Part shown: piece after piece, positions 36,296 to 38,328 of the stretch
Layout: each line of letters starts with the position of its first letter
Numbering within the stretch: position 1 is the first letter of the stretch
Assembly (NCBI GenBank): GCA_013377115.1
Contig: JACAAW010000001.1
Location: forward strand, 17,063 to 81,062
Direction: 5' to 3'
DNA from: Bacteroidota bacterium
GTDB taxonomy: Bacteria > Bacteroidota > Bacteroidia > Bacteroidales > CG2-30-32-10
DNA length: 64,000 nt
The notes under the pieces: generated by a model
Databases searched by the model: none
What the model was told of the DNA's origin: nothing
What the model saw: the letters and a program-made list of their open reading frames with translations, nothing else
Program-made: the position numbers and the translations under genes

Positions 36296-37042
36296 TTATT
36301 TCGTATTTAACAAAACACAACCATATGCCGCCAAAAACTGTGACTTTTCAGGACTTTCTGTGTTTTTAAACTTATCTTTAAACAATTTCAATATCATTGG
36401 ATGGTTATCAGGAATTCCACCAGTTACGACCAAAAAGTCTTCAACCAATGCCAATTCGAAACTTCTTTCAATGATTGAATTATAAATTCCCAAAACGATA
36501 CTTGGCATATTGGATCCATTTTTTATCATCCCAATAATTTCCGAAACAGCGAAAACAGTGCAAAAACTATTAATTCGAATTTCTTCAGTTGCTTTCTCGG
36601 CAAATTCATTGAATTCTAATGCTGAAATATCTAAGCGAAAAGCTATTTCTTCCAAAAATGAACCAGTACCAGCAGCACATTTTCGATTCATTTTAAATTT
36701 ATCAACTTGACCTTCTGCGTTAATTTTCACAAACTTTGTATCCTGACCGCCAATATCAATTACGGAACATGGCTTTTTGTAAATATCAAAAACAGCTTTG
36801 GACAATGCAATTATCTCAGAATTGGAAACCAAAGGAACCGTAAGCTTTTCGCGGCCATAGCCACAGGTAAAAATTGGATATTCGATTTCATGCTGGGCAG
36901 AAAAATGGTCAATTACTTTTTTTGAAGCTTTATCAAAGTCAAAACCAGTGCGGCCAACAAAATAATCGACAATAGCGTTATCTTCGTTAACGAGAACACC
37001 TTTGGTAAATGAAGATCCTAAATCAATTCCTATTCGGTACAT
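36296..37042 (-). CDS. BcrAD/BadFG/HgdC-family ATPase (electron-transfer activator)
   Basis: 248 aa. Actin-fold phosphate-1 motif IGIDLGSSFTKG, IDIGGQDTK, and cluster-bridging Cys contexts NRKCAAGTGSFLE and NSFCTVFAVSE. Confidence 0.85.
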   Translation of the reverse strand: MYRIGIDLGSSFTKGVLVNEDNAIVDYFVGRTGFDFDKASKKVIDHFSAQHEIEYPIFTCGYGREKLTVPLVSNSEIIALSKAVFDIYKKPCSVIDIGGQDTKFVKINAEGQVDKFKMNRKCAAGTGSFLEEIAFRLDISALEFNEFAEKATEEIRINSFCTVFAVSEIIGMIKNGSNMPSIVLGIYNSIIERSFELALVEDFLVVTGGIPDNHPMILKLFKDKFKNTESPEKSQFLAAYGCVLLNTK

Positions 37043-37092
37043 TATATATTTTTTACATTTAGATTTAAAAATAATGTAAATCTAAGAGAAAA

Positions 37093-38328
37093 TTATTTTC
37101 TATTTGCCAATTGTTGAATAAACGTTTCTATTGAAATAATGCTTTGCTCTTCGCTGTAGCACCTTGAATCATTCAAATCGCCATGAATTTCAATAAAAGG
37201 AACCTTGGTTTTTTCTAATAATCTATTTTGCAAACCGTATCTGTTGTTCGAGTTACGTGGACAAGTTTTGGATTCATGATAAATAATTCCGTCAATCGAA
37301 AATTCTGATAGAAGATTTGTCAAAACTTTTTCCTTTTCCTCGTCGGCTCTTACAATAAATAATTTGCAATAGGCCAATGCCGAAGATTCAAAAGGATCTG
37401 CTGGGTCTAAGGCATCAAAAATCCAGCTATTGCAATAGGTTGAAGCGACAATACAAGTGTCGAGACTTGCAAACATCTTAGCATTGCTGCTTAATTTGTA
37501 CCACAATGGCATTCCGTCCCAGTAAAGTCTTAGTTTTTCGTTTGGAACTGCACTAATTCCGTTCCTCACTCTTTCTTGAAGTTCTGCAAGTAAAATTTTA
37601 TAATAATCAACAGCATGCTGAGTTCCACGCATCACAACGATTGGTCCCATGTGAATCGCTGAATCAAAAAAGTTGATTGGTGATGGCTTATTTTTCGCTG
37701 TTTCTAAAACTTGACGCCAAAGCACGCAACCATCATGAGATAATTTTATCGTTTCTCTGAATTTGTCAATGTCGAATTTTTGCGTTGCAACCTTTTCCAA
37801 TTCAGGAATAATTTCTTTGAATTGTTCTGCAACAGATTTTATGATGCTTGGCGTGAGCTCGTTTATACAAAGTGGTGTATTGATCTCTAAAATAGGAACT
37901 TTAAAATACCTGGCGTAATATGAAAACCAATCTCCAACCTCGCGGCATTGATTGGTATTATAAACCAAAATATCTGGTGTTGGCACCGATTTGAATCCAC
38001 TTTTTTGAAGCGGTGTTTCGTTTTGCAAAAATGCACCAATATCGCTTGTTAAATACGAACAAATATCTGGTGAAAAACCATGAGCAACAGCTGTAGGAAT
38101 ATATTTATCAGCAGTTTTTGAAGCTCCCAACATGGCACCATGATTTTCAGGAAAATAAACTTCAAATCCCATGGAATAAAGCAATTCTGCCGGACCAACA
38201 CTTGTGCACCAGACAATTTTTTTATTCTTGGTTTCGTCAGCGGTTTTTAGTCGGTTAAAATAATCATCCATAGTAACACGGAGATTACCAACAGATTGAA
38301 GTTTTACTATTTCAGGTTTTTCTTGCAT
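37093..38328 (-). CDS. single-subunit member of the benzoyl-CoA reductase / 2-hydroxyacyl-CoA dehydratase family (double-cubane-cluster-protein-like)
   Basis: 411 aa. Family N-terminal signature [28 protein letters not shown] and multiple conserved-looking Cys. Only one such subunit lies next to one activator gene. Confidence 0.7.
   Translation of the reverse strand: [411 protein letters not shown]

Follow-up and report, generated by a model that had tools for sequence, protein, structure and literature searches.

A core–ATPase gene pair from a benzoyl-CoA pathway operon of a Bacteroidota bacterium as a candidate one-subunit 2-hydroxyacyl-CoA dehydratase with its activator

Introduction

The ATP-driven enzymes of the benzoyl-CoA reductase/2-hydroxyacyl-CoA dehydratase (BCR/HAD) family catalyse reactions that are among the hardest reductions and eliminations of anaerobic metabolism, and all characterised members that convert CoA esters need two different core subunits. 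The classical dehydratase gene clusters, ldhA-hadAIBC and fldAIBC, combine a 2-hydroxyacid dehydrogenase, a CoA-transferase or ligase, an activator and the dehydratase (PMC11574389). In BzdO, a subunit of a class I benzoyl-CoA reductase, C95, C128 and C380 are the three ligands of the catalytic [4Fe-4S] cluster (PMC11971306). The double-cubane cluster proteins (DCCPs) are defined by a seven-Cys motif, CX19CX18-19CX29CX166-170CX32-34CX32C, with six cluster ligands, and form, according to the review by Jeoung et al., a sequence cluster separate from the alpha subunits; YjiM/YjiL of E. coli belong to DCCP sequence cluster IV (PMC7317905). The present analysis concerns a pair of genes for one core protein of this family and one ATPase, located in a stretch of 64,000 nucleotides (the window) from a Bacteroidota bacterium (GenBank assembly GCA_013377115.1, contig JACAAW010000001.1, positions 17,063 to 81,062 of the forward strand). 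The pair had been pointed out in an earlier reading of the bare sequence (the original prediction) as an ATP-coupled module of uncharacterised function within an aromatic operon. A literature search agreed with that description: it gave no characterised single-subunit 2-hydroxyacyl-CoA dehydratase and no description of a one-subunit, CoA-ester-converting member of the BCR/HAD family. A Geobacter paper was set aside, as it concerns an orphan ATPase and not the family of the core protein.

Results and Discussion

The gene pair and the family of its core protein

The two genes are located as follows:

37093-38328, minus strand: core protein, 411 aa, predicted alpha-type (catalytic) HGD-D subunit of the BCR/HAD radical enzyme family, without beta partner (Pfam, NCBIfam, PDB, AF2/Foldseek)
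36296-37042, minus strand: ATPase/activator, 248 aa, HgdC/HadI/DCCP-R type 'archerase' (Pfam, TIGR00241, PDB)

A 411-aa core and a 248-aa ATPase with both cluster-bridging Cys had been proposed originally; the two open reading frames (ORFs) lie exactly where they had been placed, 50 bp apart, and Pfam and TIGR00241 agree with the assignment. The pair is read here as a single-subunit, probably homodimeric, (R)-2-hydroxyacyl-CoA dehydratase together with its activator, a reading to which even confidence is given. The core carries the family signature at residues 38-64 and matches Pfam HGD-D with 204 bits (cut-off 28). The ATPase matches Pfam BcrAD_BadFG with 111 bits (cut-off 31.5), clears NCBIfam TIGR00241 'acyl-CoA dehydratase activase' (167.5 bits, cut-off 125.4) and finds MbdQ, MbdP, HgdC, HadI and DCCP-R in the PDB with 90-113 bits. 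Both of its bridging Cys are kept, C122 (NRKCAAGTG) and C161 (NSFCTVFA), and align with the Cys of MbdQ and MbdP. The ATPase, the product of a single gene, presumably forms a homodimer that bridges one [4Fe-4S] cluster through C122 and C161.

When the core was compared with the NCBIfam models, HadB (NF052455) gave the best match of all with 220.7 bits, far below its cut-off of 750, followed by BcrB (TIGR02260, 158.6 bits, cut-off 486.55) and BzdO (TIGR03191, 97.8 bits, cut-off 448.6). The PDB sequence search ranked HadB first (E = 3e-51), then MbdO, BzdO and finally DCCP; this ranking was unchanged in a search with the family profile, in which HadB scored 227 bits. The core is about 28-30% identical to HadB and 29% identical to the BcrB of the window over its full length. 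An AF2 model of the core built on 60 family sequences (pLDDT 87.9, pTM 0.88) was compared by Foldseek, which gave TM scores of 0.87-0.91 for HadB, 0.84-0.86 for MbdO/BzdO, 0.75-0.79 for DCCP, and 0.69-0.78 for the beta-type subunits HadC, MbdN and BzdN. Because HadB ranks first by sequence, by profile and by predicted fold, the core is assigned, on sequence and model, as a catalytic alpha-type subunit. Its helical CoA-channel domain is conserved with HadB.

C90, C128 and C356 of the core align with the BzdO ligands C95/C128/C380 and also with the Cys of HadB and MbdO, and thus the canonical cluster Cys, whose absence would have spoken against the original prediction, are present. Glu61, part of a PEN motif, aligns with BzdO Glu65. 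At the position of BzdO His131 the core has Val131, as in HadB; at that of BzdO Trp46 it has Gly45, as in MbdO, and HadB has Phe.

Cluster ligands and the double-cubane question

Cys residues occur in the core at positions 41, 90, 128, 154, 201, 292, 299, 321, 356 and 390. Equivalences with DCCP and BzdN were derived from predicted secondary structure together with a profile alignment:

C41, end of strand beta-1: DCCP/BzdN Cys1
E61, 20 residues after C41: DCCP/BzdN Cys2
C90 and C128: DCCP/BzdN Cys3 and Cys4
C299, just after strand beta-2': DCCP/BzdN Cys5
C321: DCCP/BzdN Cys6
C356: DCCP/BzdN Cys7

Conservation was assessed with 240 family sequences, consisting of 120 close relatives (clade A) and 120 more distant ones (clade C). 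C41, E61, H63, C90, C128 and C356 are invariant in this set; C299 is found in 237 and C390 in 239 of the sequences, position 390 being Leu in a fusion protein, P0121, described below. Position 321 is Cys in 70 of the 120 clade A sequences and otherwise Ser, Thr or Ala, and it is Cys in none of the 120 clade C sequences, which have Thr, Leu or Ile instead. All six ligand-equivalent positions are Cys in 68/240 sequences. As position 321 is not conserved, a canonical double cubane with six Cys is no general trait of the family; of the three 'lost' second-cubane ligand positions, two (C41 and C299) are retained. In BzdO, the benzoyl ring sits where these retained positions lie (BzdNO structure paper, PMC11971306). 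Possible roles for the retained Cys are as part of the substrate-pocket lining, as a redox pair or as ligands of an additional metal site.

A different six-Cys assignment was obtained with the single-sequence DCCP alignment, which paired C292, C321 and C356 with ligands; it was ruled out for the family. C292 was rejected as the counterpart of DCCP Cys5, since the AF2 model places it where strand beta-2' begins, facing away from the cluster, and the profile pairs C299. For the one protein of the window, a six-Cys double cubane is kept as a minority reading.

These residues bear on the proposal that the core is a DCCP-type double-cubane [8Fe-9S] protein served by a DCCP-R-like reductase and acting on a small molecule or another substrate. 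The original prediction had matched the pair to this type by its layout, and the pair does share with DCCP/DCCP-R of Carboxydothermus hydrogenoformans (6eno, 7yyl) the arrangement of a single core and a single ATPase gene, the expectation of a homodimeric core, and the superfamily fold. The window protein moreover has Cys at all six double-cubane-equivalent positions (C41, C90, C128, C299, C321 and C356), with spacings close to those of BzdN (C36/73/100/263/293/327), five of the six positions are conserved as Cys in the family, and DCCP is detectable both as a structural relative and by sequence (6eno, E = 3e-4 with the single sequence and 1.2e-5 with the family profile). The assignment to the DCCP type itself did not hold. 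The curated model NF040772 'double-cubane-cluster-containing anaerobic reductase' gives 52.3 bits against a cut-off of 350 and matches residues 160-405 only; the seven-Cys motif fails, the residue at position 41+20 being Glu61 and not Cys; the sixth ligand position is variable, as detailed above; and sequence and fold are of alpha type, with the CoA-channel domain shared with HadB, so that the core groups with CoA-ester-binding catalytic subunits and not with the sequences of clusters II and IV. A DCCP-type function is therefore rated as very improbable.

An unlikely, intermediate reading would place the family on the evolutionary path from homodimeric double-cubane proteins to alpha subunits, as a self-sufficient polypeptide that carries out ATP-driven reductive chemistry on CoA esters. 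A second Fe-S or redox-thiol site, made up of C41 and C299 plus C321 in the window protein or C390, would replace the beta subunit as electron store, and the reaction might be the reductive removal of an alpha- or ring-hydroxyl from an ester of the benzoyl-CoA pathway and not a simple dehydration.

Distribution of the pair and absence of a neighbouring beta-type gene

In a scan of species-representative genomes (one genome per species), relatives of the core were found in at least 576 stretches from many anaerobic phyla, and there are thousands of close metagenomic relatives with generic annotation; such genes are now labelled 'benzoyl-CoA reductase/2-hydroxyglutaryl-CoA dehydratase subunit'. 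With 53-98% identity, the family extends over Bacteroidota, Chlorobiota, Desulfobacterota, Planctomycetota, Aminicenantes, Firmicutes, Chloroflexota and one Thermoplasmata archaeon. The closest loci are from metagenome-assembled genomes (MAGs) of Bacteroidota, with 89-90% core identity. Sequences from Bacteroidota and Chlorobiota (Ignavibacteria-like MAGs) share 74-90% identity with the core and those of a small second group about 63%; values of 53-58% were obtained for Desulfobacterota, Planctomycetota, Aminicenantes, Eubacteriales, Dehalococcoidia and others, one Thermoplasmata MAG among them. No named cultured strain is among the 240 relatives listed.

Gene neighbourhoods were examined in 80 fetched loci with +/-10 kb visible around the core; 35 of them, with at least 5 kb on both sides, are referred to as well flanked. 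Among the 71 loci with enough sequence, 68 have the ATPase immediately after the core (in six loci it was located by tblastn). A beta-type partner outside bcr operons is absent from 79/80 loci within this range. The sole locus with a second HGD-D gene outside a bcr operon, L047, carries it in a separate, divergent alpha-beta pair. Pfam assigned an HGD-D domain to none of ten unannotated ORFs nearby, which are mostly 360-440 aa long. When the whole 64-kb window was searched by tblastn with the core, BcrB and BcrC, three HGD-D genes were obtained in total, namely bcrB, bcrC and the core. The second core gene that might have been overlooked was thus not found, and the pair is, as had been proposed, neither a four-gene BCR nor a classical alpha-beta dehydratase.

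In Bacteroidota the gene order is nearly invariant: ADP-forming acyl-CoA synthetase, ApbA, had, oah, a Dch-like enoyl-CoA hydratase of 257 aa (ECH257), core, ATPase, thiolase, hydroxyacyl-CoA dehydrogenase and acyl-CoA dehydrogenase. Upstream of this cassette stand either bcrCBAD or, without bcrC, BamB-like tungsten-type (AFOR) genes. The latter arrangement is found in L003, L011, L020 and L026, which are Bacteroidota/Prolixibacteraceae MAGs with the AFOR genes upstream of the synthetase and the rest of the downstream operon identical; in L003, BamC/D-like FeS/CCG partners were called beside the BamB-like genes (class II benzoyl-CoA reductase type). Both reductase classes hence accompany one lower-pathway cassette within one phylum. 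Overall, the pair occurs beside class I genes, beside class II genes or beside neither, and because the same cassette is found next to BamB-like genes in loci without bcrC, the core is independent of BcrC.

A possibility to be judged against this background is that the core acts as an alternative alpha subunit, paired with BcrC or with a beta subunit encoded elsewhere, which would give a BCR of altered range or an ordinary heterodimeric dehydratase. The full-length identity to BcrB, the position of bcrC 12 kb away in the same strand block, and Ignavibacteria-type loci that have the pair directly upstream of bcrCBAD would suit it. It is extremely unlikely in view of the core's own ATPase being so consistently kept, the equal conservation of the pair in the four loci with class II genes, the lineages without any reductase within 10 kb, and the neighbouring genes, which by tblastn and Pfam included no beta-type ORF apart from the unrelated pair in L047; the fusions described below also argue for a self-contained unit. 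Pairing with BcrC in particular was ruled out by the loci beside class II genes and by those without a reductase.

The operon and its companion enzymes

The pair is part of a benzoyl-CoA pathway operon in a low-GC (about 33%) Bacteroidota genome, with the following genes in minus-strand order around it:

46545-51330, minus strand: bcrCBAD, Thauera-type class I benzoyl-CoA reductase (NCBIfam)
45445-46296, minus strand: BRO-N domain protein, 283 aa (phage/antirepressor-type DNA-binding domain), between bcrD and the ADP-forming synthetase
42842-44929, minus strand: ADP-forming acyl-CoA synthetase, 695 aa (Pfam CoA_binding, Succ_CoA_lig, ATP-grasp_5)
41831-42799, minus strand: ApbA/PanE-family NAD(P)H 2-oxoacid reductase, 322 aa (Pfam ApbA and ApbA_C; TIGR00745 166.8 bits, cut-off 141)
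40749-41810, minus strand: had, 6-hydroxycyclohexenoyl-CoA dehydrogenase (TIGR03201 451 bits, cut-off 338)
39640-40722, minus strand: oah, ring-cleaving hydrolase (TIGR03200 593 bits, cut-off 464)
39139-39549, minus strand: 23S rRNA intervening sequence (23S-IVS) protein (four-helix-bundle) gene, between oah and ECH257
38331-39104, minus strand: ECH257, Dch-like enoyl-CoA hydratase, 257 aa (NCBIfam best match TIGR03189)
then the core and the ATPase
35065-36261, minus strand: divergent thiolase-like protein, 398 aa (weak Pfam Thiolase_N, Thiolase_C)
32953-35058, minus strand: bifunctional beta-oxidation protein, 701 aa, with N-terminal Rossmann/hydroxyacyl-CoA-dehydrogenase-like and C-terminal crotonase parts (Pfam, PDB)

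BcrC (456 bits, cut-off 421), BcrB (632 bits, cut-off 486), oah and had are all above their equivalog cut-offs, and BcrA is below its own (416 bits, cut-off 578). The intergenic gaps around the core are 2-50 bp. The flanks are those that had been claimed originally, with the Dch-like hydratase 2 bp upstream, the thiolase-like gene 34 bp downstream, and the 701-aa gene thereafter. ECH257 matches cyclohexa-1,5-dienecarbonyl-CoA hydratase (TIGR03189) best, with 212 bits below the cut-off of 292.5; a hydratase of this type is the immediate upstream neighbour of the core in 23 related loci, and in four it is divergently oriented. A co-occurrence of the pair with oah or had, for which the original prediction had called, was seen in 21/35 well-flanked loci. 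This synteny across phyla links the pair to the lower benzoyl-CoA pathway and makes the CoA-ester substrate that had been suggested plausible.

Outside Bacteroidota, the genes of the ring pathway are often absent, and 2-oxo/2-hydroxyacid enzymes and CoA-activating enzymes persist. The former belong to five unrelated families: ApbA/PanE, Ldh_2, an 865-aa FAD-oxidase/FeS/CCG protein of the GlcD/D-2-hydroxyacid dehydrogenase type, a P5C-reductase-like protein, and 2-oxoacid:ferredoxin oxidoreductase. For the latter, the loci have an ADP-forming synthetase, in many cases with an SSF transporter gene behind it, or else an AMP-forming ligase or a family III CoA-transferase. A 2-oxo/2-hydroxyacid enzyme is present in 27 and a CoA ligase or transferase in 24 of the 35 well-flanked loci; the ADP-forming synthetase directly follows the core–ATPase pair in 19 loci of other phyla. 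ApbA was found in all 13 well-flanked clade A loci; in clade B, and likewise in 40%-identical relatives, its gene immediately precedes the core. Relatives at 38-42% identity show ApbA-core-ATPase, core-ATPase or synthetase-core arrangements. Three natural ApbA::HGD-D fusions, with 62%, 40% and 34% identity to the core, occur among the cluster representatives. The 62% fusion, P0121, has an N-terminal ApbA domain 35% identical to the ApbA of the window (E = 4e-62); the ATPase gene and a molybdenum hydroxylase operon come next (locus L085). The ApbA and the ADP-forming synthetase of the operon, which the original prediction had left out of account, belong to the module of the pair. The literature search revealed no link of ApbA to HGD-D/HAD proteins.

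In L085 (10001-18157), the fusion and the ATPase stand in an apparent operon with a three-subunit molybdenum (Mo) enzyme of the xanthine-dehydrogenase family and with XdhC and MocA-like maturation genes; ring-pathway and CoA-ligase genes were not found there within 10 kb.

The closest solved structure of the 695-aa synthetase is 4-hydroxybutyrate-CoA ligase [ADP-forming] 8wzu (E = 1e-137), 9y43 being another match; its closest solved relatives are thus ADP-forming 4-hydroxybutyrate- and 3-hydroxypropionate-CoA ligases, which run in the activating direction. The ApbA of the window is nearer to the Enterococcus-type entries 2ew2 and 3wfi, the latter of which we take to be D-mandelate dehydrogenase, than to E. 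coli ketopantoate reductase. The thiolase-like protein finds PDB thiolases with at most 83 bits. In the 701-aa protein, Pfam ECH_1 and ECH_2 match residues 428-593 and PDB crotonases cover residues 431-633, and residues 56-274 show a weak PDB match to 4dyd, a diketoreductase of the 3-hydroxyacyl-CoA dehydrogenase family. No substrate-specific hint came from the NCBIfam matches of the SSF transporter, the family III CoA-transferase, the AMP-ligase or the thiolases.

Dehydration or reduction

The ApbA::core fusions and the four other kinds of 2-oxo/2-hydroxyacid enzyme that replace ApbA favour the dehydratase reading, as does the combination of dehydrogenase, CoA activation, activator and HGD-D protein, which is the logic of the classical dehydratase clusters. 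This logic is rebuilt here with analogues for all parts except the core and the activator, and the beta subunit is missing. The system most similar to the pair is HadBC/HadI of Clostridioides difficile (3o3m/3o3n, 4eht). By sequence and by fold alike, no solved structure is nearer to the core than HadB, and both proteins have a three-Cys [4Fe-4S] site in which one iron is open, a PEN glutamate and a PSP..FD channel motif; the activator is in each case a separate small ATPase from a single gene, and a 2-hydroxyacid dehydrogenase is paired with a CoA-activating enzyme in the neighbourhood. The pair differs in its lack of a HadC-type beta subunit, in C41, C299 and C390, where HadB has Ser, Pro and Ala, in an oxidoreductase of the ApbA, Ldh_2, GlcD or P5CR type instead of the D-2-hydroxyacid dehydrogenase family, in an ADP- or AMP-forming ligase instead of a CoA-transferase at most loci, and in its context, which is the benzoyl-CoA pathway and not Stickland fermentation.

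The competing proposal of a minimal ATP-driven reductase, which would consume ATP stoichiometrically in the reduction of an aromatic or alicyclic CoA ester, is improbable without being negligible. Reductive dehydroxylation of hydroxybenzoyl-CoA or a 2-hydroxyacyl-CoA, or reduction of a dienoyl-CoA, would be examples, and the extra Cys would relay electrons or hydrogen, or would bind a second cluster in place of the beta subunit. Such an enzyme would fit the position of the pair among dch/had/oah and lower-pathway genes in Bacteroidota, Chlorobiota, Aminicenantes and Eubacteriales, and its frequent proximity to a 4-hydroxybenzoyl-CoA-reductase-like Mo enzyme, a gene like that of the 931-aa Mo protein of the window being present in 14 of the 80 related loci and beside the ApbA::core fusion in L085. 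BcrB, BzdO and MbdO are significant relatives of the core, with the BcrB score and the MbdO/BzdO TM scores given above. The class I reductases BcrCBAD, BzdNOPQ and MbdONQP (8s02, 9g87, 9gai) share the three Cys ligands through their homologous subunits BcrB/BzdO/MbdO, MbdO has a Cys also at the C41 position, and a genuine bcrCBAD stands in the same operon. C41 and C299, at second-cubane ligand positions, coincide with the benzoyl-ring pocket of BzdO, and DCCP-R provides an example of a reductase served by a homodimeric ATPase (PMC7317905).

Against a reductase, HadB is closer to the core than any reductase, and BzdO His131 and Trp46 correspond to Val131 and Gly45, the former as in HadB. The known BCRs need two different ATPase subunits and a beta-type electron-storing subunit (PMC11971306); the pair has a single core and a single ATPase gene where these enzymes have two of each kind, has no BzdN-type [8Fe-9S] electron-storage subunit, and is equally frequent without a class I reductase nearby. 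Modules of Desulfobacterales, Planctomycetota, L085 and L087 have no ring genes in the vicinity; such modules, lacking ring genes and possessing 2-oxo/2-hydroxyacid enzymes and CoA ligases, are better explained by the logic of a dehydratase. Of the extra dehydroxylation, dehydration or reduction step that had been suggested originally, dehydration is consequently retained, with 2-hydroxyacyl-CoA dehydratase chemistry favoured, and reduction and dehydroxylation are disfavoured by the ApbA/synthetase context.

Proposed mechanism and substrates

A mechanism for the pair as a dehydratase can be modelled on HadBC/HadI. The 248-aa ATPase would dimerise around its [4Fe-4S] cluster (C122, C161) and be reduced by ferredoxin or flavodoxin. 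Binding and hydrolysis of ATP would inject one electron into the [4Fe-4S] cluster of the core (C90, C128, C356), the fourth Fe of which would be free for water or for the thioester carbonyl. The substrate thioester would be converted into a ketyl radical anion with expulsion of the alpha-hydroxyl group, the invariant PENH motif (E61, H63) possibly acting as acid/base. After beta-deprotonation the electron would return to the cluster, so that ATP would be needed only in catalytic amounts. In the resulting four-gene module, ApbA would form the (R)-2-hydroxyacid from the 2-oxoacid, the ADP-forming synthetase would form the CoA ester, and core and ATPase would lead, in the dehydrating direction, to the 2-enoyl-CoA. 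The 701-aa hydratase/dehydrogenase and the 398-aa thiolase, encoded directly downstream, may then shorten this product. A 2-enoyl-CoA that undergoes one round of beta-oxidation fits the thiolase-like and dehydrogenase/crotonase genes downstream, as these recur in other phyla: the thiolase-like type stands beside the core module in L032 and in the Desulfobacterales loci L035, L058 and L069, and orthologues of the 701-aa protein lie near the core in L018 and L073.

Two kinds of substrate are offered tentatively. One, for which the chances are modest, is an aryl-lactyl-CoA that would be converted into a cinnamoyl-type CoA and further into (4-hydroxy)benzoyl-CoA and acetyl-CoA, entering the pathway above the reductase; it would explain the recurrent 4-hydroxybenzoyl-CoA-reductase-like enzyme. 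The corresponding formation of cinnamoyl-CoA from aryl-lactyl-CoA, starting from an aromatic 2-oxoacid, is known from FldABC/FldI of Clostridium sporogenes and is one candidate reaction for the pair, the substrate being hypothetical here; FldBC, unlike the pair, is an alpha-beta heterodimer complexed with a CoA-transferase. In a 2026 paper, an aryl-lactyl/cinnamoyl route to benzoyl-CoA is postulated for a sulfate reducer with the dehydratase unassigned (PMC13416013). The other, likewise a doubtful candidate, is a 2-hydroxy-dicarboxylyl-CoA, which would join the lower pathway; candidate reactions are the conversion of 2-hydroxyglutaryl-CoA to or from glutaconyl-CoA and that of 2-hydroxypimelyl-CoA to dehydropimelyl-CoA. 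It is weakly supported by the neighbouring acyl-CoA dehydrogenase, the best match of which is non-decarboxylating glutaryl-CoA dehydrogenase (254 bits, below the cut-off of 470).

Several points weigh against a one-subunit dehydratase. Every characterised 2-hydroxyacyl-CoA dehydratase is an alpha-beta heterodimer in which the beta cluster receives and stores the electron (PMC7317905, PMC11574389), and a one-subunit enzyme is without precedent among them. The family members are known here from their genes and a predicted fold, and the HadB equivalog score of 220 remains well short of the cut-off of 750. The Cys kept at C41 and C299, which are second-cubane ligands in DCCP and BzdN, and the family-specific C390 hint at something beyond a plain HadB-like site. 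A direct ApbA::core fusion skips the CoA-ligation step that is placed between the two activities, and dehydratase chemistry alone leaves the tight linkage to dch/had/oah in several phyla unexplained. Finally, the absence of a beta gene covers +/-10 kb of the core, and a copy may be located elsewhere in the genome.

Variation of the operon and other genes of the window

The BRO-N gene is flanked by gaps of about 250 bp and 515 bp. In the closest related loci, L005 and L006, bcrD adjoins the synthetase directly with no BRO-N gene in between, and the gene therefore looks like an insertion into the pathway block. The small 23S-IVS gene, which lies between oah and ECH257 in the window, is found between ECH257 and the core in Ignavibacteria-type loci (L001, 9620-9964), that is, at different insertion points of one operon in different lineages. 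The genes that follow the ATPase in the window (the 398-aa thiolase-like gene, the 701-aa gene and a 177-aa ORF without Pfam match) differ from those of L005/L006 (89-90% core identity), where a hotdog thioesterase, a 421-aa thiolase and an 821-aa hydroxyacyl-CoA dehydrogenase protein occupy that place (about 12000-16000). The thiolase-like/701-aa pair resembles the module partners of other phyla (L018, L032, L073 and Desulfobacterales) and not those of L005/L006, which suggests a cassette swap relative to the closest relatives. A scan of 32-51.8 kb for promoters and terminators gave counts equal to the shuffled expectation.

Outside the operon, the Mo enzyme mentioned above is encoded as follows:

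26557-30301, plus strand: 4-hydroxybenzoyl-CoA-reductase-like Mo enzyme, fused gamma+alpha protein of 931 aa and FAD subunit of 313 aa (NCBIfam)

The [2Fe-2S] gamma subunit is fused to the Mo alpha subunit in this enzyme; all three corresponding models are best matches, each below its cut-off (TIGR03194 816 bits, cut-off 994; TIGR03195 207 bits, cut-off 404). An insertion rich in Cys (CENRC...CLKCDGDIC...C) in the FAD subunit recalls the additional [4Fe-4S] loop of HcrB. Genes for an acyl-CoA dehydrogenase, EtfB and EtfA in a Bcd/Etf-type arrangement (22052-25097, minus strand) stand beside this block; their products could supply the reductase and the activator with reduced ferredoxin. Tryptophanase TnaA (890 bits, cut-off 750) adjoins a second ADP-forming acyl-CoA synthetase of 697 aa (12309-15807, minus strand); these two genes, for the catabolism of aromatic amino acids, are about 20 kb away from the core–ATPase pair. 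A 191-aa ORF (MIEGGYYHVFNRGNNG...HFHFLI...; 53344-53919, minus strand), located between an NMO-like gene and beta-oxidation genes, looks by eye like a REP-associated/IS200-type Y1 transposase.

Conclusion

The pair possesses the fold, the cluster site and the activator of the BCR/HAD family and differs from its described members in subunit architecture, in its invariant Cys set and in its four-gene module. If true, a one-subunit family would show how the electron-storage role of the beta subunit is dispensed with or internalised, and it would supply the missing step between DCCP and the heterodimeric enzymes, for which an evolutionary scheme has been discussed (PMC11971306). The combination of 2-oxoacid reductase, CoA ligase, dehydratase and activator would constitute an unrecognised module in the benzoyl-CoA operons of uncultured anaerobes, and it leads to the hypothesis that 2-oxo/2-hydroxy acids, for example derivatives of aromatic amino acids, feed anaerobic ring degradation. 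The generic subunit label carried by such genes can inflate metagenomic counts of anaerobic aromatic-degradation potential.

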